NCBI GenBank assembly: GCA_027485695.1 | Contig: JAIXQO010000009.1 | Coordinates: forward strand, 73,157-137,156 | Source: Pseudomonadota bacterium | GTDB lineage: Bacteria; Bdellovibrionota; UBA1018 | Reading direction: 5' to 3' | Length of the DNA stretch: 64,000 bases | Shown: in pieces, positions 7,020 to 31,233 of the stretch | How positions within the stretch are numbered: position 1 is the stretch's first letter | Layout: every line of letters starts with the position of its first letter | The notes under the pieces: model-generated | The model's database searches: none | Told to the model about the DNA's origin: nothing | Seen by the model: only the letters and a program-made list of their open reading frames with translations | Position numbers and translations under genes: made by a program

Positions 7020-9887
<2,868 letters not shown>

Positions 9888-9924
9888 ACTCCGGCACGAC
9901 TTCAAAAAAGGACGAGCTCAAGGA

Positions 9925-11130
9925 ATGAGCGATGACAAAAAGGATTTAACGAAACTTTCGGATCTCCCTCCACCCGAGGAAGAACCACGAAAAAAAGACG
10001 AAGATCCGTTTGCGGGCGTTGAACCCTTCTCGTTCGAGTCCGCACTCGCCGATCTTCCGCCACTCGACTCTGAAATCATGAAAGCCGCGCAAGGCGACGG
10101 CAGCGGCGCGGACCTCCCGCCGATGGATTCGTCGAATTTTCCAACGAACGAGCCGAGCGAGAAAACGAGCGTAGATTTCCCGACATCAGAACCATCCGCG
10201 CCGTCCGGCGGCTCTGATTTTGAACCGATGTTTCCAGTGAGTGCGTCGGACGCCGCTCCAGACTCCCCCCCGTCGGACTCTCCGCTGCCGAGCGCCGATT
10301 ACAATTCGGATATTTTCAAGTCATTCGATGCCCCGAGCACTCCATCCGCACCCGTGAGCGACGGAAACTCCGGACTCATCGTCAAGCCACTCGATCCATC
10401 GGCCGCGTCCACAGAAGCGCCCGTCAATGCCCCGGCCGTCGCCGCGATTCGAGATAGCTTGGACAAGATCAAGAATTACTCCGACCGCATGACTCCCACC
10501 GGAACGACTGTTCCGGCCGGTATCCCGTTCAGCCTCGTCATCGAAGGCGAGCTCAAGGTGCACGAAAAAGAGCGCCTACTTGAGATCATTTCTCGTGAAC
10601 AGCTCGGTGTTCGCGAAGTCGAAATCGAGCCGCAGCTCGCCGCAGGCAAAATCCTTATTCCTCGTGTCAGTGAATATGCGGGAGTGCTGATTGCTCAAGC
10701 ACTCAGAAACTCAAACGCCCGTATTCGCCTAGGCCCAACCGACCAGATTTTTCAATCCAAGGAACTCTCCGACGACGATAGCCTCCTATTCCCTCGCTCG
10801 CCAAACTACGTGCGCAAAGAAGAGAACCATACGCACGCAGCCGACGAGATGACCTTAACGAGCGCAAACGAGGTCCCCGGGCATCGCGTCGCCAAGGTGC
10901 TCGATACGTTTGAGGTCTCAACGAACCTTCGAGCACTGCACGTGCATTCCTCGAACTCGACATTTTTTCAAGAGAGTTTAGAAGGACTCAAGAAACAGCT
11001 CAGGCTTCGTGCTCATCACAAAGGCGCCGATGCACTCGTGCGGTTCAAGACGGAACTTTTTCCGCTCGACGATCAGAGTCAGTACAAGCTACTTGCGACG
11101 GCGGTTGCCGTAAAACTTCAAGTGAACTGA
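9925..11130 (+). CDS. Conserved hypothetical protein: acidic/Pro-rich disordered N-terminus, YbjQ-like C-terminal domain
   Basis: 401-aa ORF directly after secA with an RBS. The C-terminus LTSANEVPGHRV...LRLRAHHKGADALV resembles YbjQ-type domains. Confidence 0.75.
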   Translation: MSDDKKDLTKLSDLPPPEEEPRKKDEDPFAGVEPFSFESALADLPPLDSEIMKAAQGDGSGADLPPMDSSNFPTNEPSEKTSVDFPTSEPSAPSGGSDFEPMFPVSASDAAPDSPPSDSPLPSADYNSDIFKSFDAPSTPSAPVSDGNSGLIVKPLDPSAASTEAPVNAPAVAAIRDSLDKIKNYSDRMTPTGTTVPAGIPFSLVIEGELKVHEKERLLEIISREQLGVREVEIEPQLAAGKILIPRVSEYAGVLIAQALRNSNARIRLGPTDQIFQSKELSDDDSLLFPRSPNYVRKEENHTHAADEMTLTSANEVPGHRVAKVLDTFEVSTNLRALHVHSSNSTFFQESLEGLKKQLRLRAHHKGADALVRFKTELFPLDDQSQYKLLATAVAVKLQVN

Positions 11131-11209
11131 ATCTCAGGCACCCTCCATCACGACGCATCCGCGCGCTCAGTCAAAATGACAACGCGGCGCCTTTCGCCCC
11201 ATCTCCCAT

Positions 11210-11226
11210 TCGGCATCCGTCTTGCT
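11210..11226 (+). promoter_or_regulatory. Sigma-54-like -24/-12 promoter
   Basis: TCGGCATCCGTCTTGCT has GG-N10-GC spacing and lies about 60 nt upstream of the OmpA-family ATG. Confidence 0.5.
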
Positions 11227-11286
11227 TTATCTTCATTCATAGATCGAGTCTCGATGTTTCGACTCGCAATGAACAGGAGACCTGCC

Positions 11287-11913
11287 ATGAAAAATTCAAA
11301 TCTGATCTTGACGCTCGCATCTGTTTTGTCGCTCACTGCATTCGCTAACCACGAAGCCGGGCACGCTGAAACGATGTTTAAACAATCGCATGCCGAAGAC
11401 TCCCTCGGGAGAGAGACGCTCTCCGGAGGACTCATGCGCAACCACGAGTTCATTCAAGAAAACTGCGGTGTCGGTAGCTACCTATTCCGTCATGATGTGG
11501 GATGTTCCAAAACCACGGCGCGTCTCACGGACGAGACGCGATCACTCCAATCCTCGTCCCGCACGTTTGAAACCCAGCCCATCGCTATGGAAGACTCCGT
11601 CTATTTCTCCACGAACCAAGCGGAGGTCAAATCGGACCATCGCTCCCATCTCAACGATCTAGCGTCCTACTTGAAAGAAAATCCAAACGCTCGAGTGATC
11701 CTGAGCGGATACGCCGATGCGACGGGCACCGTACCTTACAACGAGCGGCTGGCCGCAAGGCGCGCGCGCGAGGTCCGAAGCTACCTCATCTCGGCAAACG
11801 TTCCCAGGTCTCAGATCTCAGTCGTGACTCCGAGTCAACCCGTGTCGGAAACTCCGAACAACTCGGCTGATCGCAAGGTCGAACTCCAAGTTGAATCGTT
11901 CCTTGCCGAGTAG
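11287..11913 (+). CDS. OmpA-family peptidoglycan-binding domain protein, secreted
   Basis: RBS AGGAG, signal peptide, VYFSTNQAEV...ILSGYADATG...YNERLAARRAREV...ADRKVE. Confidence 0.9.
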   Translation: MKNSNLILTLASVLSLTAFANHEAGHAETMFKQSHAEDSLGRETLSGGLMRNHEFIQENCGVGSYLFRHDVGCSKTTARLTDETRSLQSSSRTFETQPIAMEDSVYFSTNQAEVKSDHRSHLNDLASYLKENPNARVILSGYADATGTVPYNERLAARRAREVRSYLISANVPRSQISVVTPSQPVSETPNNSADRKVELQVESFLAE

Positions 11914-11934
11914 CTTTCACCCGAAACGTGAAAA

Positions 11935-12219
11935 TTAGAATCCCTCAGGCACCCGAGCGGGAGTGGTTTCCGATTCATCGGAATCCGCTCCCGTTGTTTT
12001 TTCCGGACTCGGCACCGGCTCTCGCACGACGGCGTCCATCATGCGTGTACCCGAGCACCCCGGAACGATTTCCTCCGCACACCACCCCTTGGCGGCATAG
12101 TGGGCGCAGCAATCGTCCGGTTGTTTTTGTTCATACTGAAACTCTGGCGTTGCGCACGCGGAGAGCGCAAAAAGCAGAAATACGAACGTCGCTTTTTTCC
12201 AGTCTGGGGTCCGGGTCAT
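11935..12219 (-). CDS. Small putative lipoprotein
   Basis: Lipobox FALSAC after a basic N-terminus. Cys-rich mature part. Confidence 0.55.
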   Translation of the reverse strand: MTRTPDWKKATFVFLLFALSACATPEFQYEQKQPDDCCAHYAAKGWCAEEIVPGCSGTRMMDAVVREPVPSPEKTTGADSDESETTPARVPEGF

Positions 12220-12306
12220 TTGTCTCTCAGACTAATCGATCTCGTCAAAATTTCGGAGTCACAAATTCGTATGAATAAAATCATCACTCACGATATTCTT
12301 TTGCCT

Positions 12307-12591
12307 ATGAAAATCACCGCACTTCTCTGCTGGGTCGTTTCCTTAGTCTTGTATCCAATGTCCGCGCGAACGGATGAGGGCGCGAAACCGGAGGATGGCA
12401 TCGCCACCTCGATCAAGAACTCCGCAAGTGATGTCGACCTCGCCACGCGCAAAGCCATTCGCTGGACGAAAAAACAAGGCCGCAAAGTCGTCGGCGAAGA
12501 CACCGCTACCAAACGAGCCCAAGACCAGGCCGCCGATGCCAAGGACGAAGCAAATAACGAGGCTCAAAAAGCCGAAAATCGCGCCAAATAG
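12307..12591 (+). CDS. Small secreted protein with CsbD/LEA-like Ala/Lys/Asp/Glu-rich helix
   Basis: MKITALLCWVVSLVLYPMSA signal-like start, then AQDQAADAKDEANNEAQKAENRAK. Confidence 0.6.
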   Translation: MKITALLCWVVSLVLYPMSARTDEGAKPEDGIATSIKNSASDVDLATRKAIRWTKKQGRKVVGEDTATKRAQDQAADAKDEANNEAQKAENRAK

Positions 12592-12717
12592 TCATTCGCT
12601 CACCGAGCAAGTTAGCCCAGGTACAATTCTCCTGTTGATTGCACGAGTTGTTGCACAAATTCTGGCATGCATCCTGAAAACTGGTGAGGAGATGCACCAG
12701 AGTTCTAGGAGGACACC

Positions 12718-12945
12718 ATGACTGAACCCGCGCATACCCCTACCCATCCCGATCGCAAGCGTCTCTTACCGAGAGACGACAACTGGAGTTTCGATGGAGA
12801 GTTCCATCGCTCGGCAAGTGAGCGCGAGTCCTCGCCGAACTTCGGTGTAGACACCTGGGGACCCAGAGCCACTTTTGATTTCCATTCCGTCACTGTAACA
12901 AACATCCGCAAGCGACACGGCCGTTCTCAAGAAATCTTGCAGTAA
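12718..12945 (+). CDS. Small hypothetical protein
   Basis: Strong RBS AGGAGG before the ATG. 75 aa. Confidence 0.5.
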   Translation: MTEPAHTPTHPDRKRLLPRDDNWSFDGEFHRSASERESSPNFGVDTWGPRATFDFHSVTVTNIRKRHGRSQEILQ

Positions 12946-13129
12946 GCGCGGGACTGCTTGGCGAATGGATCGCCTCGGATCCGCGCGACTGCCCCGTTTT
13001 GCCTGGCATGCAATCTGTAACGTCCTGGACTCAACGTCGCATGACTCTCAACGGGTGAATGAACTCTAGAACGTTCATGACCACCGAGACCTGCGCGCGT
13101 TCACTCAAAACCGAACCAGGAGAAAAATC

Positions 13130-13867
13130 ATGACTCATAATAATCGTTTCTCAAACTCTCATGACCGCAGAAAATCCCGCCCGTCGAATCGTCCGTTTGC
13201 GTCCCAGCAAGGCAATTTACACCGAGCCTCGATCGAAAATCATTCGTCCATTCCCGATCGAAACGACTATGAATCACGCCAATACGCAGCCGAGCCGCGA
13301 TTTTCGGATCATGACTACACTCGCGACTACAACCGTGATTCGAGTCGCAATGACGATCGAGACGCAGACACGAAATACAATATGAACGACTATGGGTCGA
13401 GCTACCTGCCTTCGAATTACGGACGCAATACCTCTGACTACGGTCACTGGACGAATCCAGATGATCGACGCCAGGAACAAAACCGCGAATCTAACTCTAG
13501 CGCCAGTCGCGCAAGTTTCGCAGGTCGCGGCCCCAAAGGCTACAAACGCGCCGACACCCGTATCGAAGAAGAAGTCTGCGATGCGCTCCTTCATGACCAC
13601 GTGATTGATGCCAGTGACATCGAAGTCACCGTCAAAGACGGCGTAGTGACGCTCTCCGGTCACGTACCAGAACGCCGCATGAAACGCCTCGCCGAAGACT
13701 GCGCCGAGCAGGTCTCGGGCGTCAATGACGTACTCAACGAACTACTGACGAAATCAGAGACGAGTTCAGATCAAACTCACAACTCGAATCTCGAGCGCGG
13801 CAAAATGGGAGCGATGAACTCGAGCCAAAAATCGAAAACGGGCACCCAGAGTTCAAACGTGATGTAA
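13130..13867 (+). CDS. BON-domain protein
   Basis: GRGPKGYKRADTRIEEEVCDALLHD..IDASDIEVTVKDGVVTLSGHV...AEQVSGVNDVLNEL. RBS AGGAG. Confidence 0.92.
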   Translation: MTHNNRFSNSHDRRKSRPSNRPFASQQGNLHRASIENHSSIPDRNDYESRQYAAEPRFSDHDYTRDYNRDSSRNDDRDADTKYNMNDYGSSYLPSNYGRNTSDYGHWTNPDDRRQEQNRESNSSASRASFAGRGPKGYKRADTRIEEEVCDALLHDHVIDASDIEVTVKDGVVTLSGHVPERRMKRLAEDCAEQVSGVNDVLNELLTKSETSSDQTHNSNLERGKMGAMNSSQKSKTGTQSSNVM

Positions 13868-13889
13868 GCCATTTCCCTCAAGGCTTACC

Positions 13890-13925
13890 GAGGGCTAGCT
13901 CGCGAGGCTGGCCCTCTGTTTTTTT
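13890..13925 (+). terminator. Rho-independent terminator
   Basis: GAGGGCTAGC-TCGCGAG-GCTGGCCCTC followed by TGTTTTTTT. Confidence 0.8.
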
Positions 13926-13951
13926 CACTGCTTTTTTTTACTCCTCTTTCA

Positions 13952-14848
13952 CTACTCTCGACGCTGTCCCTCCCAGAAGACGGGCAATAGACGCGGATAT
14001 CCCGCCTGCTCAAGCGCGCGCGTAATTTGGCTGTCGATTGCGAACTGACTTAAATTCTCCTCGCGCCCACCGACCAAAGTCATCGTGTAGACACGATTCT
14101 CATGTCCGTCTTGCAAAATGATCTGACGATCGATGCGCTCGATTTCGGTTACTCGGTAAAACTGATGATTCTTACCGCCGTACGGGTGGTGGATTTCGAG
14201 TCCGGATGATGAAAACCGCAAATAAGGAATAAACATCAAGTAGTAGAGGAACGCCGCAAACGCGATGTATCCCAAGATCAAGACGGCGATGATTTTTGAT
14301 TCGTGACGCTTGAAAAAACTCGTGTCCGCCAGCGCGAGCGCAATCTGCAACTCATGAGAATGTTGCGATCTCATTTTTAAGTGCGCGTCGTCGGCCCGTT
14401 TCACGTGACGACGATAGACTTCGGCGTAGATGCCTTTTTCGGCAATCTGAGTTTTTGACCACCAGTTGGCCAGGCCATACATGAGCGGGAGCGCGAATAT
14501 CAGAAGAAACGGCAGGCGAATCCATTCGTTCATCCGGATCACTACGCCAGATCCCGTCACCTCAAATCCGGGTGCGAGCGTGAACCATGTGACCCCTAGT
14601 AACGCCGTCGACAAGAGCGCCAAGATCCAGCGGTAGCGTCTGAGCTGACCCAAGAATCGCTCGAGCTCAGCCTGCGAGACCACTTCATCGAGTTCGGGAG
14701 CTGAGAGAGACGACTCCGGATCGGGCTGTGGTCCCCTCAATCGACGACCGGACCTCCAAGCGCCCAGGGCAAACGCGATTGTCGCCAAGACCAGACTCGT
14801 GAGGATGGGACGAGAAAAGTCAGACCAGGTAATTTTGGACAGAAACAT
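13952..14848 (-). CDS. Hypothetical membrane protein
   Basis: 298 aa with four hydrophobic segments. No recognised family. Confidence 0.75.
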   Translation of the reverse strand: MFLSKITWSDFSRPILTSLVLATIAFALGAWRSGRRLRGPQPDPESSLSAPELDEVVSQAELERFLGQLRRYRWILALLSTALLGVTWFTLAPGFEVTGSGVVIRMNEWIRLPFLLIFALPLMYGLANWWSKTQIAEKGIYAEVYRRHVKRADDAHLKMRSQHSHELQIALALADTSFFKRHESKIIAVLILGYIAFAAFLYYLMFIPYLRFSSSGLEIHHPYGGKNHQFYRVTEIERIDRQIILQDGHENRVYTMTLVGGREENLSQFAIDSQITRALEQAGYPRLLPVFWEGQRRE

Positions 14849-14955
14849 GACTTAAGCTTACTGGAAACCTGCCCACCTGCACGCGAAAATACTAGCGCGA
14901 GACGAGCCAGACTCATCAGAGCCATCACTCGTTCGTCTCATGATATGTGCTAGGA

Positions 14956-15822
14956 CTACTCAGGAATGGCGTTCTTGGGATCGTAGTCGCCCAGCTCATC
15001 CGGCAAGGACTCACAACGACGACGGTAGGTATCGGCGTCCGCAAGTTTTAACTGATCTTCGTCAAAAATGGCGAGTGCAAGTAGGTCCCCCAAGATCGCC
15101 GAAGACTCGACCACAAATCGATGCTTGTCTCCGCACCACCGAAACGCGATAGAGATTTCTTCAATGACGTCAGACTTACTCGATTTTTTGACCGAGTGCC
15201 GAAGCGGCCATTTCTGCTGAAAATAACCCCAGTAATCCAGACTGATTTGTGTGTTCCGTCCCACTCGAAACGACTTGGCCCAAACATAGAGTGCCAATTC
15301 GATTTCCTGTTTCGGGCGGCCGGAGATTTTAGCGATGTATCCAACGCGAGACGCAAGGACCTGCGGCAGGCCAGTTGCGGTAGGCGTTTTCTCCTGCTCT
15401 AGACTCCAGGCTCTGATTTCAGCAAGCAGGTTCACCACCCGCTTGAAATCCGGCTGAACGTCCCGGTGAGCAGAGACCGCACCCACGCCATATTTTGACA
15501 AGAAACGTTGATCAACCTGGAGGCTCGGAGCATTGCAAACATTCAACTGGCGGTGACACTGAACGAGCTCTTGAGGCAAGTTCTCGGGTTTGGGATGGCA
15601 GAACGCTTGGTAGATCGCCTGACATGCCTCTAACTCATTTCGATCGCGGTAGCGCTGAGCCTGCATATCGCCATAGTTGCGCTCGCGGATATACGATCCC
15701 CCCGGCTCGTAGGGCTCGCTGTTCTGCCCCCAACGTTTAGAACTCGATTCGGCGGCAGGCTTGACTTGAGCGTTGACCAGGCCAGTAACCAGAAGACAAA
15801 TGAGCATAACGACACGCATCAT
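14956..15822 (-). CDS. Hypothetical secreted protein
   Basis: Signal peptide MMRVVMLICLLVTGLVNA. 288 aa. Confidence 0.7.
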   Translation of the reverse strand: MMRVVMLICLLVTGLVNAQVKPAAESSSKRWGQNSEPYEPGGSYIRERNYGDMQAQRYRDRNELEACQAIYQAFCHPKPENLPQELVQCHRQLNVCNAPSLQVDQRFLSKYGVGAVSAHRDVQPDFKRVVNLLAEIRAWSLEQEKTPTATGLPQVLASRVGYIAKISGRPKQEIELALYVWAKSFRVGRNTQISLDYWGYFQQKWPLRHSVKKSSKSDVIEEISIAFRWCGDKHRFVVESSAILGDLLALAIFDEDQLKLADADTYRRRCESLPDELGDYDPKNAIPE

Positions 15823-15927
15823 GGCGTCGGAGTCTAGGGGATGGAATGGCTTTTGTAAATACCCTTTAAATACAAATACCTATCCTCAACCCCTTTTGAA
15901 CTAAATCCCCCTAAACCCCCGTATTTG

Positions 15928-15936
15928 TGTTAGAAT
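15928..15936 (+). promoter_or_regulatory. Extended -10 promoter element of ssrA
   Basis: TGtTAGAAT lies 8 nt upstream of the mature tmRNA 5' end. Confidence 0.5.
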
Positions 15937-15944
15937 CTCCCCAT

Positions 15945-16295
15945 GGGGACGTCATGGCTTCGACAGGAGTCTTGAAATTCTTGATGCAAGCCGAGGTGCT
16001 GGAGGCCTCGTAAATAACCAGCTGCTTATAGTTGCAAACGATAACTATGCAATGGCTGCTTAATATAAGCTAGCTACGTTCAACCTCAAGTGCCCCCGGT
16101 TGGGGATTGAACGTCATTTAGGGGGCTAGCGGTTCATCTCTCATTGGTGGGTGAATCGCGAAATAACTGCCAATGGTGTCTTGCAGTAGCCGGCTCACGG
16201 GGCGCCTGAAAGACAAACTAAACCTGAGAGCTAAGCTTGTAGAGTTGCGGATGGATGGCTTTTGGACGTGGGTTCGATTCCCACCGTCTCCACCA
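15945..16295 (+). ncRNA. ssrA: tmRNA; tag peptide ANDNYAMAA* at 16034-16063
   Basis: 5' GGGGACG pairs with 3' CGTCTCC-ACCA including the G3:U alanine determinant. T-arm GTGGG-TTCGATT-CCCAC. Tag reading frame is present. Confidence 0.98.
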
Positions 16296-16304
16296 TTTTT
16301 AGAT

Positions 16305-16350
16305 AAAAGCAAAAGGCTCTGGACCGAAAGGTTCAGGGCCTTTTGCTTTT
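16305..16350 (+). terminator. ssrA terminator
   Basis: AAAAGCAAAAGGC..GGACC-GAAA-GGTTC..GCCTTTTGCTTTT hairpin. Confidence 0.85.
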
Positions 16351-16361
16351 GTTTGGATTGC

Positions 16362-16524
16362 TGCAGGCGGCGGGAATCGAACCGTGCAGGATCGGCCGCG
16401 GGGAATCGCAAAGCGATTTCGCGCGGAGAGGCGCACACGATGTGCGACTCAGATCCGGAACCCGCGACGGAGCTTTTCGCGTGAAGCGAAAAGCGCGAGG
16501 AGTCGATTCCCACCGTCTCCACCA
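16362..16524. repeat. Structured repeat bounded by inverted copies of the tmRNA 3' end
   Basis: Left arm TGCAGGCGGCGGGAATCGA (16362-16380) is 16/19 complementary to the right arm. The right arm 16503-16524 is an exact 22-nt copy of tmRNA 16274-16295. Three internal hairpins. Confidence 0.9.
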
Positions 16525-16529
16525 CTTTA

Positions 16530-16574
16530 AAAACAAAAACCCTCGGACCGAAAGGTTCGGGGGTTTTTGTTTTT
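16530..16574 (+). terminator. Second copy of the ssrA-type terminator
   Basis: AAAACAAAAACCCTCGGACC-GAAA-GGTTCGGGGGTTTTTGTTTT. Same GGACCGAAAGGTTC core as 16321-16334. Confidence 0.8.
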
Positions 16575-16576
16575 GG

Positions 16577-16622
16577 GGTGTTGATACCGAGGGAATCGAA
16601 CCGTGCAGGATCGGCTGCGGGG
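16577..16622. repeat. Second inverted T-arm copy plus truncated linker
   Basis: GGGAATCGAACCGTGCAGGATCGGC is identical to 16372-16396. Similarity stops at 16622. Confidence 0.85.
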
Positions 16623-16641
16623 GTTAAATTCTCTGAATCGA

Positions 16642-16663
16642 TGTGCAACGAATGTGCGGTTAC
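16642..16663 (+). repeat. 22-nt direct repeat, left flank of cargo gene
   Basis: TGTGCAACGAATGTGCGGTTAC versus TGTGCAACGAATGCGCGGTTAC at 17645-17666 (21/22). Confidence 0.85.
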
Positions 16664-16733
16664 ACGAAACACTTTAGCATATGCCTTGGTTCGAAAACTT
16701 TAGCTTGCGCCCGATTCATTATAAAGTTTGAGC

Positions 16734-17639
16734 ATGGGGACTTGGGGAACTCAAATAACGGAAAACGACACTTTCGCCGACGTTTATTCGACGTACTTTG
16801 ACTATTATGACGATGGTCTCGACGAAAGCATCCTCGTAAAGCAACTCGATCGTGATTTTCAGGAAGTATTAGACCACCCCGGTGACGCCCATAACTTCTG
16901 GTTCGCCGTCGCGGCCGCGCAATGGGAGTGTGGGCAACTCCGCTCTAATACACTGGAAAAAGTACAAAAGATTATCGAATCTGATGAACATCTCGCGAAC
17001 TGGAAAGATCTAGGAGCGTCATCTGACGAGCTTGAGGACAGGAAGTCCGCTTTATCGAATTTTCTCAGTAAGCTTCAGTCTAAAAATAGCCGCCCCCGTA
17101 AGCGAAAGAAGAAAACACTTTACGATTCCGTCTTCAAAAAAGGTGATTGTCTCGCATATCGAATGGCTGGTGGAAGATTTGGAGGTCTTTTCGTTTTAGA
17201 AGAAGAGCAAGCAACAAAGACTGGTTACAATTTAGTTGCATTGACTACGATAGAGAAGGAATCCGCACCTACGATTGATGACTTCAAAACCGCCTATGTC
17301 TTCGTTCAGCGTATAAAACAACACTTTGATGTAAACCTAGAGGGACAAAAGCTTTCAAGCAGTCGAGAGGTATGGAGAGAGCGCCCTTTAGTTGGCTGGG
17401 CAGGCGTAAGCACATTCACGCCTAAAGAAATTGAAATACAAAAGGTCGGAACTCTTCCGGTTAATAAAAATTATTCCTCTCAGTATCACGACTTCATGCA
17501 TATGAGATGGGATAGCTTCCTTTCTGCTCTTGCCGAGCGACAAATTAATAGCACTTCAAACCCTAAAACGAAGCTTAGAGACTGGAGATTGAATAAGAGA
17601 TGGCGTTCATTGGCCGATTGGTTTGGTTTAAAGCGCTGA
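16734..17639 (+). CDS. DUF4259-like N-terminus hypothetical protein (AT-rich cargo gene)
   Basis: MGTWGTQITENDTFADV...FWFAVAAAQWECG N-terminus. Visibly AT-richer than secA. Confidence 0.8.
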   Translation: MGTWGTQITENDTFADVYSTYFDYYDDGLDESILVKQLDRDFQEVLDHPGDAHNFWFAVAAAQWECGQLRSNTLEKVQKIIESDEHLANWKDLGASSDELEDRKSALSNFLSKLQSKNSRPRKRKKKTLYDSVFKKGDCLAYRMAGGRFGGLFVLEEEQATKTGYNLVALTTIEKESAPTIDDFKTAYVFVQRIKQHFDVNLEGQKLSSSREVWRERPLVGWAGVSTFTPKEIEIQKVGTLPVNKNYSSQYHDFMHMRWDSFLSALAERQINSTSNPKTKLRDWRLNKRWRSLADWFGLKR

Positions 17640-17644
17640 ATTGC

Positions 17645-17772
17645 TGTGCAACGAATGCGCGGTTACCTGTTCAGCGTGCCGAGTGGGCATAAATAAAGTC
17701 GCAACTACTCGCGATTGAAGAAGCTGGAGAGTCCCTGGACGGGCGTACGAACGCTCGAACAGGAATTATATG
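17645..17772. repeat. Right-flank direct repeat starting an imperfect attC-like hairpin
   Basis: CCTGTTC-AGCGT (17666-17677) pairs with ACGCTCGAACAGG (17751-17763) with one bulged base. Confidence 0.5.
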
Positions 17773-17800
17773 TGCGAAGACTTCATTTACTCTACTTGGA

Positions 17801-17856
17801 GCGAAAGGTTCGGCGCATTTTGTTTTTATGGTGTTGATACTGAGGGAATCGAACCG
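17801..17856. repeat. Eroded terminator plus inverted T-arm copy
   Basis: GGTGTTGATACTGAGGGAATCGAACCG (17830-17856) matches 16577-16603 at 26/27. Preceded by CGAAAGGTTCGG. Confidence 0.85.
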
Positions 17857-17963
17857 CGCTAGGTCACGCTTGATGCCACTTTGAATCCCCCAGCCAGGCT
17901 ATGATCAAAATCTGTCGCTCCCAATCCCCTCGGTCGAATTGCCCCCTTACCCATCAAAATGCA

Positions 17964-17980
17964 TTGGATGCAAAATTGCA
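17964..17980 (+). promoter_or_regulatory. Possible sigma-54-like -24/-12 element
   Basis: TTGGATGCAAAATTGCA has GG-N10-GC spacing and lies upstream of the host-attachment gene. Confidence 0.35.
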
Positions 17981-18051
17981 GGTCTTTGATAGGCGAGTCT
18001 TATTTATTGAAACCGTTCTGAGCTTTAGAGACCAAACAGGAGGTACATACG

Positions 18052-18489
18052 ATGAACTCGAAATTAACCTGGTTACTAGTAGCCCAAAGAGCGGAAGCAC
18101 GGGTGTACGAAATTGAAAACTCTAAATCCCTGAAACTCATTCACGACTTCGACCACCCAAGCGGACGAAAGAAAGATCATGAACTGGGATCCGATAGCCC
18201 AGGCCGGAGCTTTAGCTCCGCTGGCTCCAGTCGCCATAGTTACACCCAGGAAAACGGGCCGTCTGACCAAATTACCATCGAATTTTCAAAGGAGATTGCC
18301 AATTTTCTCGAAAAGGCGCGAAGTGAAAATCGATTTGAAGCACTCATGATTATCTCGGGACCGAGCTTTCTAGGGAACTTACGAAATGACATGACCTCAG
18401 ATACTCGTGATCTCGTCACTTCAGAAATAAGTAAAAACTTAGGCGGTTTTTCTGCGCACGAACTCAACGATTACATTAATAAAAACTGA
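18052..18489 (+). CDS. Host attachment protein (AtsE/baeRF12-like) family
   Basis: TWLLVAQRAEARVY...SDSPGRSFSS...FSKEIANFLEKAR..FEALMIISGPSFLGNLR. RBS AGGAGG. Confidence 0.88.
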   Translation: MNSKLTWLLVAQRAEARVYEIENSKSLKLIHDFDHPSGRKKDHELGSDSPGRSFSSAGSSRHSYTQENGPSDQITIEFSKEIANFLEKARSENRFEALMIISGPSFLGNLRNDMTSDTRDLVTSEISKNLGGFSAHELNDYINKN

Positions 18490-18540
18490 ATGATGTTTTC
18501 AATCGTGCCTCAAAGGAATTTGAGAATTCGACACAGGTTT

Positions 18541-18660
18541 AGGAATCGCAAAGCAAATTCGCGCCGAGAGGCGCATACGATGTGCGACTCAGATCCAGAA
18601 CCCGCGACTGAACTTTTGCCGGGAAGGCAAAGGCGTATGGATTAGATTCACGGCGTCCCA
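18541..18660. repeat. Second copy of the structured linker
   Basis: Colinear with 16401-16520, including GAATCGCAAAGC, CGATGTGCGACTCAGATCC and AACCCGCGAC. Ends in a degenerate tmRNA-end-like sequence. Confidence 0.9.
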
Positions 18661-23831: not shown

Positions 23832-24830
23832 ATGTCCCCCATGATTCACCTCAAATACTCGACGCTACTCAGTCTCATCACATTAAGCATTCTCAACCCC
23901 CATTTGGCTCATGCCCAGCTATTCACCTCTGATCTCGCACCAAGCGCATTAAAAGAGGGTGGCCACAGCAACAACGGTGGCGATCCTTTTGAACTAGCGG
24001 AACTGACTGGAAAAAATGGATCACGCCTGAGTTCTTGGTACTCAGTAAAAATGGACTTGATTCAAGGACTAGAGATGGGTCGCCATCACTCCATTAACCT
24101 CTATGAATGGACTCCGGAAACTTTCAAAGAAAAGCTGCTCTACTCACTAAAATCGACGGCCGTGGAATTTCGTCATGAGTGGATCCAAGTGAACGGTGTC
24201 GACCGGCCCTGCAAGAACTATCGAATTGGAGAAAAAAACTACCGTATTCAGTGCAACCCCGCTCAGTATCTGCCAGCAACGGAAAAGCTCTCCATCGAAG
24301 AACATGTGAAATTTATCGCCCACGAGTACATGTCCGCAGCAGAACTCGAACCGAACCGGTACGGCCTATCGGACTTCCGCTTCAGTGAACAAATTTCAAG
24401 AAACCTCGAACAAGTCACCGTCCGTCGTTGGGCGACTGCTACACCTCCTTCGACCACACCCGTGCCCGAATATTGTCAAACGGTCCCCGTCTTAAAACAA
24501 ATATTTCGAATTCTATTTGATAGTGCCGGGGTCGACGAAACAAAATTAGAAGTCCCCTTTGATCAAATGGGCATTTTTCGAGCAGCTTTGACCCCCTATA
24601 TGATTTTTGATGGCAAAGCTAACTTACGCATTTCACAAATCGACTGGTCAAAAGAGAATCAGATCCACTTCCTCTACTCTTACTGCTCTCAAGGAAATGA
24701 CCGCTATGTTGGCCGCCTTACAGCCTATGGGAACGAACGCGTATGCTTACGTCGCGTCGAAACTGAGGTGGTCTCTCGATGCACGAAAGTTCCTCCCAAG
24801 ACCGATCGCAGATCTAGAGGGCGATCATAA
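23832..24830 (+). CDS. Secreted protein with GGHSNNGGD motif
   Basis: Signal peptide ending AHA. KEGGHSNNGGDPFE and FIAHEYMS motifs. Abuts the TIGR02147 gene. Confidence 0.8.
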   Translation: MSPMIHLKYSTLLSLITLSILNPHLAHAQLFTSDLAPSALKEGGHSNNGGDPFELAELTGKNGSRLSSWYSVKMDLIQGLEMGRHHSINLYEWTPETFKEKLLYSLKSTAVEFRHEWIQVNGVDRPCKNYRIGEKNYRIQCNPAQYLPATEKLSIEEHVKFIAHEYMSAAELEPNRYGLSDFRFSEQISRNLEQVTVRRWATATPPSTTPVPEYCQTVPVLKQIFRILFDSAGVDETKLEVPFDQMGIFRAALTPYMIFDGKANLRISQIDWSKENQIHFLYSYCSQGNDRYVGRLTAYGNERVCLRRVETEVVSRCTKVPPKTDRRSRGRS

Positions 24831-24890: not shown

Positions 24891-24946
24891 TCAAAAGAAA
24901 AAGCTTCGGACCGCCCGGTTCGGAGCTTTTTCTTTTGATGGTGTTG
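24891..24946. terminator. Terminator hairpin related to the ssrA trailer repeat
   Basis: TCAAAAGAAAAAGCT-TCGGACCG...GGTTCGG-AGCTTTTTCTTTTGA followed by TGGTGTTG, as at 17829. Confidence 0.75.
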
Positions 24947-25192: not shown

Positions 25193-26110
25193 ATGCATCT
25201 TATTTTGCTTCTTGGATGGTTTTTCTCTGGCAGTGTCGCAATTGCTGACCTCGGCGATCCGGGAAAGGTCGCCTGGACTACCGTTACTTTCAAGGACGGT
25301 CAAGTTCACGAAGGGCTCACTTTTGTAGTAGAGGCCGCTTATGATCCGAAGGATTCCAAAATGGGAATCCTCCTCGTGAATAACGATGGCGCACGAAAAG
25401 ATGTCCCGTTCGTCATCAACGATAAAGAACTCAGAGTCGAATTTGACTGGAAAAAACTTAAAGACGCCGTGGTGTACGCGCGAGTGTTGACGAATGCTAC
25501 GCCTACCCTCGCGTTAACCTCTCGCTACAAAAATCGCTGCCAGCCGAATGAGGTCCGAGAAATTCCATTGCGAGATATTCGGTCGATTCATTGGCAATAT
25601 AAAATTTCCTCGTCCCACCATAAAAAGATTCTGAAAGAGTTTTCGGAGTCCGAGAACTTCAAAGATTGTCCGATTGCAAGTTGCTTCATTGGCGGAGATG
25701 GAGATTGCCGAGTTACCTTCACTCCCGGGACTCTGCCAAAAGACAAAGTAAAAGACGCACTTGAACTCTACTACCAAGCGGAGTCCGGAACTTGGGAGGA
25801 TTACCATGAAGTCGAAACATTTCAGGCAAAATTTCAGAACTTTCCGCAGGGCGCAGAATACAATCGAGTCAAGTCGCTCATCGAGCGCAGCCACGCGGTC
25901 ATGAAAAAGATAGAGCCCACTTGTACGACCATACCTGAGTCTGAGCGTGACGATTGCTGGTGGAAGCTTTCGGCGCAGATTCGGACGGAGGTAGAGGCCT
26001 CGATGAAGCCTTTCCTGGAAAAATGGCAAGTAAAATTGATCTCTTCAGATCCTTTTAGAGTCGAGGATCGTCTTCTTCCGGCCATCGAGATCAACGAGGG
26101 ACACCGATAA
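25193..26110 (+). CDS. Hypothetical secreted protein
   Basis: Signal peptide MHLILLLGWFFSGSVAIA. 305 aa. Confidence 0.75.
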   Translation: MHLILLLGWFFSGSVAIADLGDPGKVAWTTVTFKDGQVHEGLTFVVEAAYDPKDSKMGILLVNNDGARKDVPFVINDKELRVEFDWKKLKDAVVYARVLTNATPTLALTSRYKNRCQPNEVREIPLRDIRSIHWQYKISSSHHKKILKEFSESENFKDCPIASCFIGGDGDCRVTFTPGTLPKDKVKDALELYYQAESGTWEDYHEVETFQAKFQNFPQGAEYNRVKSLIERSHAVMKKIEPTCTTIPESERDDCWWKLSAQIRTEVEASMKPFLEKWQVKLISSDPFRVEDRLLPAIEINEGHR

Positions 26111-26204: not shown

Positions 26205-26255
26205 GACCGGTTCGGAGCTTTCTTTTTGATCAAGCTGATACAGTGGGAATCGAAC
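26205..26255. repeat. Eroded terminator half plus inverted T-arm copy
   Basis: GACCGGTTCGGAGCTTTCTTTTTGAT...CTGATACAGTGGGAATCGAAC. Shares sequence with both 24916-24939 and 16581-16601. Confidence 0.75.
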
Positions 26256-26269
26256 GCTTCAGTATTTAT

Positions 26270-26305
26270 GTATACAGTGTATACCTAACAGTATACACTG
26301 TATAC
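26270..26305. promoter_or_regulatory. Tandem palindromic operator, probably bound by the TetR at 30601
   Basis: GTATACA-G-TGTATAC (26270-26284) and GTATACA-C-TGTATAC (26291-26305), ending 3 nt before the ATG. Confidence 0.75.
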
Positions 26306-26308
26306 TCC

Positions 26309-29300
26309 ATGAGCCAAAATTTGTCTATTTTGAGAAGCCGGTCCCAAATCGTGATTTTCTTAGTCACAGCGCTTTCACTTTTAGGTCTTATCGCATTTTT
26401 AGTCATGCCACGAGAAGAAGACCCTCGCATTAAAAGACGAAATGCCATTACGACCGTCGTCCTTCCCGGCGCGGCCCCAGAAAAACTCCTTCGGACAGTG
26501 GTAAGACCCATCGAGGACAAACTACTAACCGTCCAAGAGTTAAAAAAGGTTGAAGTCGAGATTCGCCCAGACGTCGCGGTTTTTCAGCTCGAACTGCGCG
26601 ATGGTGTCCGGGATATTCCCGATGCTTGGCGTGAAGTAGAAAGAGCGCTCGATCGTGCCGCGCCCGACATCCCGAATTCATTGCCCGTTCCCGTGCTTGA
26701 CTTCTCAGTGATCGACGTAGAAGCGCTCGTCCTCGCAGTCACTGGATCAGATGATCGGGTCTTGTTAACAGACGCCGCACTTCGACTAAAAGACCGTCTC
26801 GCTCGCGACCCCGACGTAGCGGAGATAAAACTATTTGGTGAGCCAGGCTTGGAAGTTTTGGTCTCAGTAGACTCTCCTCGCCTACACTCACTCGGAATAC
26901 CGATCGAGCGGTTGCTCAGCGCAGTTGCTACGAACAACTCTGCACGCTCGACGGGTTTTTCGATCATCAGTGGTTCGCGAGTTCCGCTCCAACAAGATAA
27001 TGACGCAGTTTCGGTGGAATCATTGAAACAGATCCGTCTCGAGACCGGTCGCCTCATCACGCCAGCTCTAGAAAGTTACGCGTCCGTCTCGCGCGTTTCT
27101 TCCACTCCCGCTCGCGCACTTTTTAGATGGAACGGCAAGAGTGCGATCGGACTTGGCGTCATTCCGCGTTCAGGGATCAACATTGTCTCCTTCGGCGATC
27201 GATTCCTGAAAGAAGTCCGTGAATCCCAAGTAGAAATCGCTCCGTTAAACGTAGAGGTCGTCGCATTTCAACCCGAGCGCACTCGAACCCGAATCAATGA
27301 TCTACTCATTTCGCTGCTCGCTGGGGTTGGCCTGATGGCGGCATTCCTGGGCGCAACGGCAGGCGCAGCATTTGCTGCGATCGTCAGCGTGAGCGTCCCG
27401 ATCATCACGTTGGTTAGTCTATTTTTCTACTACATTACCGGAGGCGTACTTCATCAAATATCGATTGCGGCATTCGTCATCTCAATCGGACAGTTCATCG
27501 ATAACGTCGTGGTGGTAATCGACTCAATACAGACGCGACTGCGAAATGGCGAAAACCCAGAACAGGCCGCGAGCGCAGTTTCTGAGGAACTCCGCTTGCC
27601 GATGGCATACGCGACACTAACCGGGATCTGTGCTTTTTTGCCGATGCTCTCCGCCCAAGGTTCGCCGGCAGATTTTGTTTTCTCACTCCCCCTGGTCGCG
27701 GTGATCTCGCTGGTGTCGAGCTATTTTGTGGCCGTCTGGTTTGTCCCTCTGTTGGGCAGGCGTCTGATTCGGCCGGATTCTCGGCCCTGGCTCGAACTTC
27801 CTTTCGGGCAATTGCAGCGACTATTCACTTCGGTTGCCGAGGGCCCCCCTTGGCGTATCGCAGTTCTGGTCACAGCCATCACCGTCGCGAGCTTACTGAG
27901 CGCTTTATTTATTGAAAAAGAGTTTTTCCCAGAGTCCGATCGTAACGAATTCATTTTAGCCGTCGAACTCCCCCCCGGTTCCGATATCACGAGTACAGAT
28001 CGCGTTCTACGAACCGTAGAGAGCTACCTCAGCAAAGATCCGCGGGCCACTCTGGTCGCTACGTTTGCAGGCGGAGGCATACCTCGTTTTTACTATAATA
28101 TTCCGAATCCTCGTCGCGCACCGGAAATGGGACAAATCCTCATTTCAACACGAAGCCCCAAAGACGTGAAACCGCTGGGTTTGCATTTAGAAGAAACACT
28201 TGCTCATGATTATCTGGGTATTCGATTTACAGCACAGTTCCTACAACAAGGCCCGCCCATTAATGCGAAGGTCGAATTGAACTTTTTTTCCGAAGAACCA
28301 TCCCGAAGAGAGGAATTAAATCAACGCTTGTCGGAAATCATCACCCAGGAGCCTGGAGTTCGTTCGGTTCGCCCTGACGACCAAAAAGGGATGCAACGTT
28401 TTAGTTTCGTTTCCCGCGACGAAGCACTTGCAAATTTAGGGTTAGATCGTAACAACTTGAACTCAATTTTAGCCTTTTACTCCTCTGGAGTGACAGTCTC
28501 CGAATTTAGACGAGACCGAGAGATTATACCGGTTGTTGTCCGGGATCGGTCTGGCCTCACTCGATCACTTGACGATACCCTCAAACAAATTGCAATCCGA
28601 GGACGGGATCATGACTTTAAAGTCGGCGAGCTGGTCAAAGCATCCGTCGAACTAGAATCGTCTATTTTGCGCAGGAAAAACGGCCAGACTTTTACTCGAT
28701 TGCGCGCTGATCTACAGCCAGAACACACTTTCGATCGCGTCTTAAAAAAGATCCGACCAAAACTAGATGGAATCAAACTCAAGAACAAAGAGAGGATCGA
28801 ATTCGGGGGCGATGCTCAAGGCTCTGCCGAAGCAAACGCCTCAATCCTAAAAGTCGTGCCGACTGCCATGACGCTTTTGATTCTCTTTCTCCTTCTTCAA
28901 TTTCGGTCCTACCGAAAAGTAATGATCGTGGCGCTGGCGATACCCGTGACAATCATGGGTGTTTTCCCAGGTCTGTGGTTGAGCGGTCAGCCTTTTGGAT
29001 TCATGTCACTACTTGGAGTGCTAGCGCTCGTGGGCATCGCAGTGAACAATATCATTCTGCTACTTGAGGCAGTTGAAACAGAAGGATCAGTAGGCGCGGC
29101 CGTTAGGACGCGCTTTCGAGCGATATTTCTCACAACACTTCTCACGCTGCTCGGCCTCATACCGCTTGCACTCGAAGACTCCCCCCTTTGGCCGCCACTG
29201 GCCTGGACCATGATATCAGGATTGATCACCGGAACGATTGCGACATTGATCGTTGTGCCTGGGCTGTATCGGGTTTTCTTTCGTACATCGGCTACCGAAA

Positions 29301-30604
29301 TCGCAGCACGCGCGCCGATGCTCCTGACTTTTGTGATCTCAGTAGTTGGCGCTCTATCGCCGTCACACCAAGCATACGCAGAAGAACCCATTCGCTTAAC
29401 AATCGCACAGGTAGGCGATCGCGCGGACTCCAGCGATGAACAAGCGATCGTGAACCTTGAAGTCGAGGAAGCCGAAGTAGCCAATCGTTTAAACTGGCGA
29501 GCGACATATTTGCCGCGATTGATTGCAGGAGCCGACTTCTATCGCCGGGACCGCGAACTTCGCACCCCTACCCCGTTTGGATTGCTACCATTCGAAAGCC
29601 AAGGAAGGCTTGACGCCCAAATTGAGCTTCGACAACCGATCTTTAATGCAGAACAAATGCTAGCCGGGCGGGGACAATCCGCCACTGCGGCTCGAGCAGC
29701 TCGTCGAATCGGTGAACACCAGAGCCAAGAGTTGCGCTTTCGTTGGATGACTCGGGCACTCGAGACACTCATCCTGGAACGCGAACTGAAGTTTCTACTA
29801 GAAACGATCGAAAATCTACGTGGGAGACGACGCGATATGGAAACCCTCATTCGAAAAGGGCGCACCTCTCGAACCGATTTGATTCGGATCGACCTCTCCA
29901 TTGAGCGTTTCGAGCACGAAGCAGCTCAGGCAAAGAATGCGCGAGAAGTGGCATTGCAGCAGCTCGCGAGCGAGCTGGGAATCGACGGGTCGCTCGAACT
30001 GATCCCGCCCGTCGGCACGGTTCGTCCAGTCACTCGAGACATTCAACCCACCGCGCAGATAGATAGCCTACGACTTCGGGTGGTCGAACTGGACGAATCT
30101 ATTCGTCGGCTGCGCCTATCAGCATTTCCGACCGTCGATACTTTTGCCCGAGTCGTTCAAACCAATGGTCGCAACCTAGTTGAAACTCGATGGCTTGAAG
30201 CCGGATTGGGGCTAAGGTGGGAAATTTATGCGGGCGGAACAAGGTCAGCAGAAGAAAGGCAGTTAGCAACTCGGAGAGCCACTCTAGAAAGACGTATTGA
30301 GATACTCCAACGGGATCATCAGAACGAAATCCTAAAACAGCGCCTATTCATAGAGGAGAGCTTGCGTCGGCAGGAAAGACTAGACAAACTGCAATCTAGG
30401 GCTCGTGAAAATCGTGCAGCCGAAAGTCAAAGGTACCGCGAAGGGAGGAGCAGTGTGAATGATTTAGTGGAAGCGGATTCAGCCGAGATCGAAACAAGAA
30501 AAGACCTAGACCTAGTGAATCTCAAACTACGGATTGCTTGCATGCAAATTGAGCTGTCCTCTGGGCGCGCCGTCTCTCCGGACTGCGATGGAAAGGGTCC
30601 GTGA
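26309..30604 (+). CDS. AcrB/AcrD/AcrF-family RND permease fused to a C-terminal TolC-family outer-membrane factor
   Basis: MPREEDP..., GQFIDNVVVV, GIAVNNIILL, RFRAIFLTT, followed in frame by an OEP-like helical/beta region (ELRQPIFN, GLGLRWEIYAGG). Likely start ATG 26309. Confidence 0.9.
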   Translation: MSQNLSILRSRSQIVIFLVTALSLLGLIAFLVMPREEDPRIKRRNAITTVVLPGAAPEKLLRTVVRPIEDKLLTVQELKKVEVEIRPDVAVFQLELRDGVRDIPDAWREVERALDRAAPDIPNSLPVPVLDFSVIDVEALVLAVTGSDDRVLLTDAALRLKDRLARDPDVAEIKLFGEPGLEVLVSVDSPRLHSLGIPIERLLSAVATNNSARSTGFSIISGSRVPLQQDNDAVSVESLKQIRLETGRLITPALESYASVSRVSSTPARALFRWNGKSAIGLGVIPRSGINIVSFGDRFLKEVRESQVEIAPLNVEVVAFQPERTRTRINDLLISLLAGVGLMAAFLGATAGAAFAAIVSVSVPIITLVSLFFYYITGGVLHQISIAAFVISIGQFIDNVVVVIDSIQTRLRNGENPEQAASAVSEELRLPMAYATLTGICAFLPMLSAQGSPADFVFSLPLVAVISLVSSYFVAVWFVPLLGRRLIRPDSRPWLELPFGQLQRLFTSVAEGPPWRIAVLVTAITVASLLSALFIEKEFFPESDRNEFILAVELPPGSDITSTDRVLRTVESYLSKDPRATLVATFAGGGIPRFYYNIPNPRRAPEMGQILISTRSPKDVKPLGLHLEETLAHDYLGIRFTAQFLQQGPPINAKVELNFFSEEPSRREELNQRLSEIITQEPGVRSVRPDDQKGMQRFSFVSRDEALANLGLDRNNLNSILAFYSSGVTVSEFRRDREIIPVVVRDRSGLTRSLDDTLKQIAIRGRDHDFKVGELVKASVELESSILRRKNGQTFTRLRADLQPEHTFDRVLKKIRPKLDGIKLKNKERIEFGGDAQGSAEANASILKVVPTAMTLLILFLLLQFRSYRKVMIVALAIPVTIMGVFPGLWLSGQPFGFMSLLGVLALVGIAVNNIILLLEAVETEGSVGAAVRTRFRAIFLTTLLTLLGLIPLALEDSPLWPPLAWTMISGLITGTIATLIVVPGLYRVFFRTSATEIAARAPMLLTFVISVVGALSPSHQAYAEEPIRLTIAQVGDRADSSDEQAIVNLEVEEAEVANRLNWRATYLPRLIAGADFYRRDRELRTPTPFGLLPFESQGRLDAQIELRQPIFNAEQMLAGRGQSATAARAARRIGEHQSQELRFRWMTRALETLILERELKFLLETIENLRGRRRDMETLIRKGRTSRTDLIRIDLSIERFEHEAAQAKNAREVALQQLASELGIDGSLELIPPVGTVRPVTRDIQPTAQIDSLRLRVVELDESIRRLRLSAFPTVDTFARVVQTNGRNLVETRWLEAGLGLRWEIYAGGTRSAEERQLATRRATLERRIEILQRDHQNEILKQRLFIEESLRRQERLDKLQSRARENRAAESQRYREGRSSVNDLVEADSAEIETRKDLDLVNLKLRIACMQIELSSGRAVSPDCDGKGP

Positions 30605-31233
30605 AGAAATCAACAAAGGGCCCAAAGCGCGAGATCGGGCTGCGCGAACGCTTGATAACAGTGGCCCTCCGCGAAATCAAACGCCAAGGCGCTCACGGCA
30701 TGACCCTACGAGGAGTTGCAAAACTTGCCGGATGCACCCCGATGGCGACCTATCGCTATTTTGATTCAAAAGAAGCACTTCTAGCCGAAATAGCAAGAGA
30801 AGGGTTTATTCATCTACGCACGGAGATGCTCGAAGCGACTACTCGATCGAACCTCACCCCTCTTGAGCAAATCGAGGCCGCCGGAAACCGTTATATTCGC
30901 ATGGCCCTCGAGCGCCCGGCCCACCTACTCATGATGTTCGGTGGATTTATTGGAGACCCTGATGATTTCCCAGAAATGAAAGCTGCCGGAGAATCGACAT
31001 TTTTTACGCTCGTAGAAATGATGAACGCCGGCCAGCGCGAAAAACTGCTCCCTAAATGTGACCCGATCCAGCAGGCGGTAGCAGCCTGGTCCATCGTGCA
31101 CGGGTTTTCGATGTTGATCATCAATGGGAATTTGGAATTCTTAGGGATCAACCTCGACAACTCCAAGGAACACGCGCGTTTCGTTGCACGTTCCGTAATC
31201 GATGGTCTACGCGCATGCACGAATTTTAAGTAA
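30601..31233 (+). CDS. TetR/AcrR-family regulator
   Basis: MTLRGVAKLAGCTPMATYRYFDSKEALL and AAWSIVHGF. 4-nt overlap with the RND stop. Confidence 0.93.
   Translation: MKKSTKGPKREIGLRERLITVALREIKRQGAHGMTLRGVAKLAGCTPMATYRYFDSKEALLAEIAREGFIHLRTEMLEATTRSNLTPLEQIEAAGNRYIRMALERPAHLLMMFGGFIGDPDDFPEMKAAGESTFFTLVEMMNAGQREKLLPKCDPIQQAVAAWSIVHGFSMLIINGNLEFLGINLDNSKEHARFVARSVIDGLRACTNFK

Follow-up and report, generated by a model that had tools for sequence, protein, structure and literature searches.

The window analysed here, a stretch of 64,000 nucleotides (64 kb), contains a complete tmRNA gene, ssrA, and the DNA 3' of this gene is a tandem array of one unit of ~230 bases, composed of a terminator, an arm, a linker, and a copy of the tmRNA end. 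The features of the array, all on the + strand, are the following:

15945..16295, +: ssrA, complete tmRNA gene with tag peptide ANDNYAMAA (ARAGORN; Rfam RF00023, 206.5 bits, full-length)
16274..16295, +: end0, putative attachment core, the tmRNA 3' end from the T-loop to CCA (TCGATTCCCACCGTCTCCACCA)
16304..16351, +: terminator hairpin 1, ~20 bp, with T runs on either side
16359..16383, +: arm 1, an inverted imperfect copy (21/25) of the tmRNA 3' end
16384..16502, +: linker 1, intact (from the fold, pair list, pair counts, and family comparison)
16503..16524, +: end1, an exact 22-nt direct repeat of the tmRNA 3' end and the attR-like boundary of unit 1
16528..16575, +: terminator hairpin 2, 79% identical to terminator 1
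16580..16622, +: arm 2 with the initial 20 nt of a linker, the left half of unit 2, cut at 16622 (16591-16622 is 97% identical to 16372-16403)
16623..18541, +: the 1.9-kb interruption of unit 2
18542..18633, +: linker 2, the right half of unit 2, partly decayed (82% identity to linker 1; 83 bits against the covariance model)
18634..18660, +: end2, a decayed copy of the tmRNA 3' end seen by alignment (GCGTATGGATTAGATTCACGGCGTCCC)
26209..26256, +: an orphan terminator remnant with an arm, ~10 kb downstream, which has no pairing partner (fold z +0.8)

The array begins at 16296, directly 3' of a functional ssrA, and a repeat of the ssrA end stands at the unit boundaries. The 22-mer that starts at the T-loop has two exact occurrences in the window (0 expected by chance), at 16274-16295 and 16503-16524, and a third, decayed copy lies at 18634-18660; end1 sits 229 nt downstream of end0, and the tmRNA gene itself is intact. 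Unit 1 (16296-16524) is intact and closes with the exact 22-nt repeat; unit 2 has 1.9 kb between its two halves (16622/18542) and ends in the decayed copy. The terminator, arm, linker, and end modules each recur within the window, which holds one complete copy of the unit. All four arms in the window are 80-84% reverse-complement copies of the tmRNA end and have in common, exactly or nearly so, the 12-mer GGGAATCGAACC; arm 1 has two pairing partners, end0 on the far side of terminator 1 and end1 on the far side of the linker. A search for inverted similarity to the tmRNA beyond the 25-nt arm found none. We regard both the origin and the role of the inverted arms as putative. A preliminary description of this DNA had overlooked the repeat unit that is anchored on the tmRNA end beside ssrA; the linker is a module of that unit, and the locus therefore reads as a site-specific integration hotspot and not as a free-standing RNA locus.

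Two further modules lie farther from the tmRNA gene. The orphan module at 26209-26256 follows a gene ending at 26110 and keeps GGGAATCGAAC together with a degenerate terminator; a weaker relative of the terminator module, at 24893-24946, follows a gene ending at 24830 and has a good terminator and an arm reduced to 'TGGTGTTG'. These two modules may be the marks of older integrations, up to 10 kb from the tmRNA gene. Similarity to a decayed linker or end, sought in 17640-17800 and upstream of the 24.9-kb and 26.2-kb modules, was no better than chance. A 184-codon open reading frame on the - strand (window 16118-16672) spans arm 2, terminator 2, and all of unit 1 and runs into the tmRNA gene; it is almost certainly spurious, a trap for annotation.

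Comparison with relatives reveals the empty site. In one relative (L012), which has a flanking protein 62% identical to that of the window and the same tmRNA tag, the locus is collinear with window 9138-16295 and synteny ends exactly at the tmRNA 3' end, past which there is only a plain terminator followed by unrelated genes. No arms, repeats, or traces of a unit were found downstream of the tmRNA in four relatives, i.e. L012 and three more distant loci. In a distant relative (L016, region 15740-17870) a large serine recombinase of 616 aa is encoded on the reverse strand, its gene overlapping the tmRNA 3' end by ~64 nt; a recombinase abutting ssrA in this manner has the same layout as the integrase of the Dehalococcoides ssrA islands (PMC3146451). 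Among the 56 larger ORFs scanned across the 64-kb window, none has a recombinase domain of any class.

The preliminary description had reported a second linker copy, which takes up where a truncated copy stops, and had proposed that about 1.9 kb of cargo inserted into one linker. The second copy is real: 18542-18657 aligns with 16402-16517 over 116 nt at 82% identity (blastn E 4e-27). The left fragment stops at 16622, which corresponds to unit position 16403, and the right fragment starts at 18542, which corresponds to 16402, so that the two overlap by 2 nt, GG. The uninterrupted form is present in three independent copies, namely unit 1, an allele from a biofilm metagenome (X5), and the copy V3, in all of which arm and linker are contiguous, and of the 68 predicted pairs, 41 join bases on opposite sides of the 16403|16404 break, which falls inside hairpin 1 of the linker; unit 2 is therefore an interrupted copy, and the proposed insertion of cargo is supported. 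Terminal inverted or direct repeats and a target duplication were sought at the ends of the 1.9-kb insert and none was found. The GC content of the interruption is 0.44-0.45, against ~0.52 in the flanks, and it contains the following:

16734-17639: a gene of 301 aa with a weak DUF4259 match (E 0.021)
17795-17875: degenerate terminator 3 with arm 3
18052-18489: a Host_attach/baeRF12 gene of 145 aa

A direct repeat of 42 nt flanks the 301-aa gene (16622-16663 and 17625-17666, 83% identity, core TGTGCAACGAATGYGCGGTTAC), its second copy overlapping the last codons of the gene; judged from sequence, it could be an att-like pair or a duplication. Linker 2 begins 52 nt past the stop codon of the 145-aa gene. 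Searches of the cargo genes against PADLOC, PHROGs, and NCBIfam returned nothing. Readings of the locus as a retron, an IS110 bridge-RNA system, or an IS200/IS605 element were dropped, the cargo proteins having no reverse transcriptase, DEDD, or HUH domains.

The complete unit (16352-16530) is predicted to form a rod (z -5.7 on either strand), and the end-terminator-arm stretches are predicted to fold as DNA into long hairpins, with z of -7.5 (end0-terminator 1-arm 1) and -5.9; the end/arm pairs are inverted target-like sites, 63 and 57 nt apart. Linker 1 is predicted to form a three-way junction of helix P2 (16389-93/16452-56), helix P3 (16396-16400/16422-26), hairpin 1 (16402-16420), and hairpin 2 (16428-16450), beyond which come a small hairpin (16462-70) and then hairpin 3 (16472-16494, matched in copy 2 by 18612-18634). 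The wobble pairs all favour the + strand, and this bias, together with the orientation that the linker has in common with the tmRNA and the cargo genes, points to a single-stranded + strand form, RNA or DNA, in which we infer that the linker acts. When the window was searched with the Rfam 15 covariance models, tmRNA alone reached its gathering score; at E up to 10 there were sub-threshold matches for the terminator hairpins only and zero for the linker.

The compensatory base changes reported for the second copy are as described. Hairpin 3 reads CTTTTCGC-GTGAA-GCGAAAAG in copy 1 (16473-16493) and CTTTTGCC-GGGAA-GGCAAAGG in copy 2 (18613-18633); two adjacent pairs (16478/16488 and 16479/16487) are swapped on both arms, a CG>GC flip that keeps both pairs, and A16492>G turns a further pair into a T.G wobble. 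The CGCACA of hairpin 2 has become CGCATA through 16436 C>T and still pairs as a wobble. A full tally of unit 1 against the re-joined unit 2 gives 2 compensated pairs, 2 wobble-preserving changes, and 5 predicted pairs broken. Hairpin 1 loses two of these pairs (16415 G>A and 16417 T>A); P3 loses one, both sides of which have changed to a non-pair (16397 C>T and 16425 G>C); the small CCG/CGG hairpin loses one at 16469; and hairpin 3 loses its outer pair (16472). Folded by itself, copy 2 is no more stable than shuffles of its sequence (z -0.8). Across three reconstructed alleles, 3 pairs have both of their bases altered; slid controls give 0-1 such pairs, and the count of 3 is reached in 37 of 500 shuffles. 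Compensation across the three alleles is suggestive and not significant. Copy 2 is a decaying, split relic and as such is, on its own, poor evidence for structure.

More informative copies come from public sequencing runs that were compared with the region: the metagenomes of the source study (X1-X4), the biofilm metagenome X5 from another study, and a metagenome of the rhizosphere (X9). The strain found in X5 is a related one; over 16372-16473 its linker has just two differences, A16435>G and T16443>C, which fall on either side of a single hairpin-2 pair and so amount to a compensatory change from A-T to G-C. The same allele is a mosaic, with ~98% identity to the right of GGGAATCGAACC against ~60% just to the left, where it resembles arms 2 and 3; the boundary, near 16372, is sharp and falls at the conserved 12-mer, the pattern expected of a recombination crossover. 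At least 6 further linker-like contigs are present in X1-X4 and X9. Of the contigs concerned, V3, V4, and V5 (from X1-X4) are 1184, 529, and 835 nt long, those from X9 measure 261, 197, and 144 nt, and that from X5 measures 407 nt. Copies V3, V4, and X9 record 1 were read from 30-nt flanks and mismatch counts (1 to 5), with the letters of the window standing in for their cores. In those flanks, helix P2, which the window builds from GGAUC/GAUCC, is formed by GAAAAC/GUUUUC in V3 and by UUCGC/GCGAA in V4, and in every case compared (flanks only) its 3' strand starts at G16452; by our own estimate the chance of exact complements in the flanks is about 0.006 for V3 and 0.025 for V4. Hairpin 1 is GGAAUCGC-AAA-GCGAUUUC in the window; V3 keeps the window stem and has a GGAA loop, one nucleotide longer, V4 has GAACGC-CAAG-GCGUUU, and X9 record 1 has CAGACAUGAC-AGAC-GUCAUGUCUG. 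Every reconstruction that uses the window core as a stand-in refolds to the same three-way junction. These models, in which the core letters of the V3, V4, and X9 copies are those of the window, show the three-way-junction fold to be conserved across copies of differing sequence.

X9 record 2 also has the linker followed by the same tmRNA end, beyond which the flank is a different one; in V5 and X9 record 3 the place of the tmRNA end is taken by other T-loop-like ends, TCGAATCCTCTTTAGGCC... or TCGATTCCCTCTTTACGC.... In long-form members from X1-X4 and X9, hairpin 2 and the CCGCGACGG motif are separated by an additional segment (...GGAGGGGAGCC.ACAGCGCAAGC... / ...GACUGAGAGAGGGAG); at this point the window has AUCCGGAAC alone. 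Two metatranscriptomes showed coverage of tmRNA-like sequence only, and no RNA run holds the unit.

The earlier suggestion that the structure, and not only the sequence, has been under selection thus stands in good part, mainly through the X5, V3, and V4 alleles and paralogues; the copy for which it was made lends it weak support, with its z of -0.8 and five broken pairs. On covariation across more copies, which had been put forward as a check at the same time, the compensatory pair in X5 and the helix replacements favour the structure, and the count over three alleles, equalled by 37 of 500 shuffles, is not significant. The folded core of the linker appears to be conserved as a structure, in models for which the evidence comes mostly from copies other than copy 2.

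Other searches for the unit were largely empty. Exact-word scans of genome and metagenome contig collections gave chance matches to a ~20-nt seed only, and those of viral contigs gave zero matches. A six-frame translation of the unit had no match in a database of 5.8 billion proteins, and a distant-mode blastn search of phage and plasmid collections returned only a terminator-like match and a match to a Burkholderia gene. A covariance model built from the three alleles, run over the window and the loci of the relatives, found only the two known copies. No excision or circle junction was seen in the material covered, which consists of assembled contigs, from which rare variants are dropped.

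Integration hotspots at tRNA and tmRNA genes are already well known. Integration into T-loop and 3'-end sublocations of these genes was reportedly described by Williams in 2002. [quoted passage not shown] The array resembles these islands in its tandem units directly 3' of ssrA, its conserved element-side sequence by the repeat, the absence of an integration module from some members, and the break of synteny at ssrA. It differs in that the window has no integrase among the scanned ORFs and in the size of its units, 0.23 to 2.1 kb as against about 10-30 kb; further, the inverted copy of the ssrA end past the terminator and the structured linker of ~120 nt have not been described for the Dehalococcoides islands. 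Prochlorococcus islands contain tycheposons and degraded remnants of them, in which successive integrations at tRNA and tmRNA genes push older elements outward (bioRxiv 10.1101/2020.12.28.424599). What is left behind, namely partial tRNA repeats in arrays, segments with cargo only, and remnants in decay, makes the array similar to tycheposon remnants (bioRxiv 10.1101/2020.12.28.424599); tycheposons, however, carry tyrosine recombinases and replication genes, and neither inverted target copies nor a conserved structured linker has been reported for them.

A different kind of likeness is to sites that recombine as folded single strands. In CTXphi attP(+) and other elements that exploit Xer (PMC3442271) and in integron attC (PMC4792948), two inverted imperfect target-like sites are separated by a short spacer and the stem of the single-stranded DNA mimics a double-stranded target; the recombinase is supplied in trans, and structure rather than sequence is conserved (PMC3442271, PMC4792948). 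By analogy, the array would match CTXphi attP(+) in its tandem copies with inverted site pairs between them and in imperfect target copies ~60 nt apart (PMC3442271), and integron attC more loosely. Unlike CTXphi and integrons, the array has the tmRNA-gene end as its target, in place of dif or attI, and XerC/D-type or GTTRRRY cores, phage genes, and an integron integrase are all absent. The sites copy the tmRNA T-loop and acceptor end, with no dif-like XerC/XerD sites as target; no integron integrase and attI lie beside the array, the upstream genes having no recombinase domain and being conserved in a relative that has no array; and attC R''/R' cores (RYYYAAC ... GTTRRRY) are not found, with GTTAAAT at the left junction only (16623-16629), GTTTAGG at the right, and GGGAATCGAACC in the arms.

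With moderate confidence we favour the explanation that the array consists of the footprints of small recombinase-less elements that integrate site-specifically into the segment of ssrA from the T-loop to the 3' end. It builds on how the array is organised, on the 22-nt repeat being exact, on the relative with an empty site, on the presence of the linker in other habitats with the same or other T-loop-like ends, and on a three-way-junction fold that is kept where sequences differ. An incoming element would supply a replacement tmRNA 3' end and terminator, keeping the tmRNA functional, and would place past the terminator the arm, an inverted imperfect copy of the end it supplies; the structured linker would be at the other end of the element and, once integrated, would abut the displaced old tmRNA end. 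On this account unit 1 (16296-16524) would be the youngest and intact, and unit 2 would be older, split within hairpin 1 by 1.9 kb of accessory genes and with its end copy decayed, 18542-18660 being its right half. A unit of 229 bp is too small to be a plausible free element, and unit 1 would therefore be either a remnant or mobilised in trans; a recombinase would likewise act in trans. In the mechanism that we prefer, arm and end would pair in single-stranded form and so mimic the duplex target in the tmRNA gene, after the manner of CTXphi attP(+) and integron attC, and the linker would serve as a structure-specific accessory module. The linker is best read as a conserved structured module of this element family, for which a role as transcribed RNA and a single-stranded DNA mechanism are about equally likely.

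Other explanations account for parts of these data. The linker could be an independent structured non-coding RNA gene on the + strand, a small RNA or a 3'-UTR element with a tRNA-like tail, its neighbourhood to the tmRNA merely reflecting the site at which it is carried; this is possible, if on the unlikely side. The three-way junction kept with sequence-divergent helices, the compensatory change in X5, the G.U wobbles that all lie on the + strand, and the GNRA-type GGAA loop in one copy would all be expected of an RNA, as would the orientation of the linker with the tmRNA and cargo genes, the terminator after each unit, and the start of linker 2 only 52 nt past the stop of the 145-aa gene. 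An RNA gene would, however, leave unexplained the exact tmRNA-end repeat, the inverted arms, and the empty site of the relative, and it has to be set against zero Rfam matches up to E 10, the RNA runs, none of which holds the unit, and a position behind a strong terminator, with no promoter-like site between terminator 1 and the unit. Intergenic folding units also call to mind ERIC and Correia palindromic repeats and MITEs, which are small, strongly folding units flanked by inverted repeats, and the unit could be a MITE or Correia-like element with arm and end as its terminal inverted repeats and a transposase encoded elsewhere. Its 166 nt, imperfect terminal inverted repeats of 25 nt, strong fold on both strands, intergenic location, and several copies across metagenomes agree with this. 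We nevertheless think it improbable: no target-site duplication accompanies the unit, its 'right repeat' reproduces the 3' end of the adjacent gene exactly, and the family has variable ends and a conserved interior, the reverse of a MITE, with one complete copy in 64 kb. In contrast to ERIC, Correia, and MITE elements, the ends here are derived from the target and vary, the interior is conserved, the target is not duplicated, and the copy number is low.

Two further alternatives bear on the base changes themselves. The compensatory changes of copy 2 could be mutational by-products, quasi-palindrome correction by intrastrand template switching having converted both arms of a hairpin at once. 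The flip in hairpin 3 is the same CG>GC dinucleotide on both arms and fits one templated event, elsewhere copy 2 is in decay, having lost five pairs, and the three-allele count is reached by 37 of 500 shuffles; what such correction fails to explain is the exchange of whole helices for unrelated complements in V3, V4, and X9 record 1, as read from the 30-nt flanks, and the consistent + strand bias of the wobbles, and its probability is low. Lastly, the linker could be a protein-coding relic in which the hairpins are incidental, since the frame ...RGEAHTMCDSDPEPATEL (+ strand, 16401-16482 and 18541-18648) resembles a motif of Old Yellow Enzyme-type flavin oxidoreductases, blastn aligned 50 nt at 84% (E 2e-4) within an Oxidored_FMN gene of Burkholderia, and of the 7 core positions at which copies 1 and 2 differ, 5 are third codon positions whose change is synonymous in that frame. 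Against this, the peptide has no Pfam or PDB match at E up to 10, the six-frame protein search was empty, tblastn of the full enzyme gave a match of only 12 residues (E 0.13), both X5 changes alter the encoded residue (His>Arg and Cys>Arg), the hairpin-1 loop of V3 differs in length by 1 nt, and copy 1 has a stop codon in the hairpin-3 loop. We judge the likeness of the frame to be coincidental or at most an ancient relic, and a coding origin of the linker to be very improbable.

The footprints of tmRNA-targeting elements, our preferred reading, have two features that are not part of the described islands: the inverted target copy just past the replacement terminator, and, by the attachment core, a three-way-junction module that is conserved while its sequence varies. 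A bolder form of this reading, which we consider quite unlikely, is by analogy that the units are an undescribed class of small recombinase-less cassettes that would integrate as folded single strands into the tmRNA gene, the arm and end mimicking the double-stranded target, the linker serving as an accessory site, e.g. for priming or recombinase loading, and the tmRNA gene becoming an integron-like platform. If the modules do act single-stranded, folded-hairpin recombination, so far known at dif and integron sites, would extend to a tmRNA target, and the accumulation of tiny integrase-less cassettes at a tmRNA gene would be explained. If instead the linker is a transcribed RNA, it would represent an unclassified structured RNA family of freshwater, biofilm, and rhizosphere communities.

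Elsewhere in the window, nested palindromes (TATACAGTGTATAC ... GTATACACTGTATAC) occupy 26260-26310, just upstream of a gene for an AcrB-type efflux protein that is followed by a TetR-family gene (30601-31233); from their sequence, these palindromes are probably the operator of a repressor.
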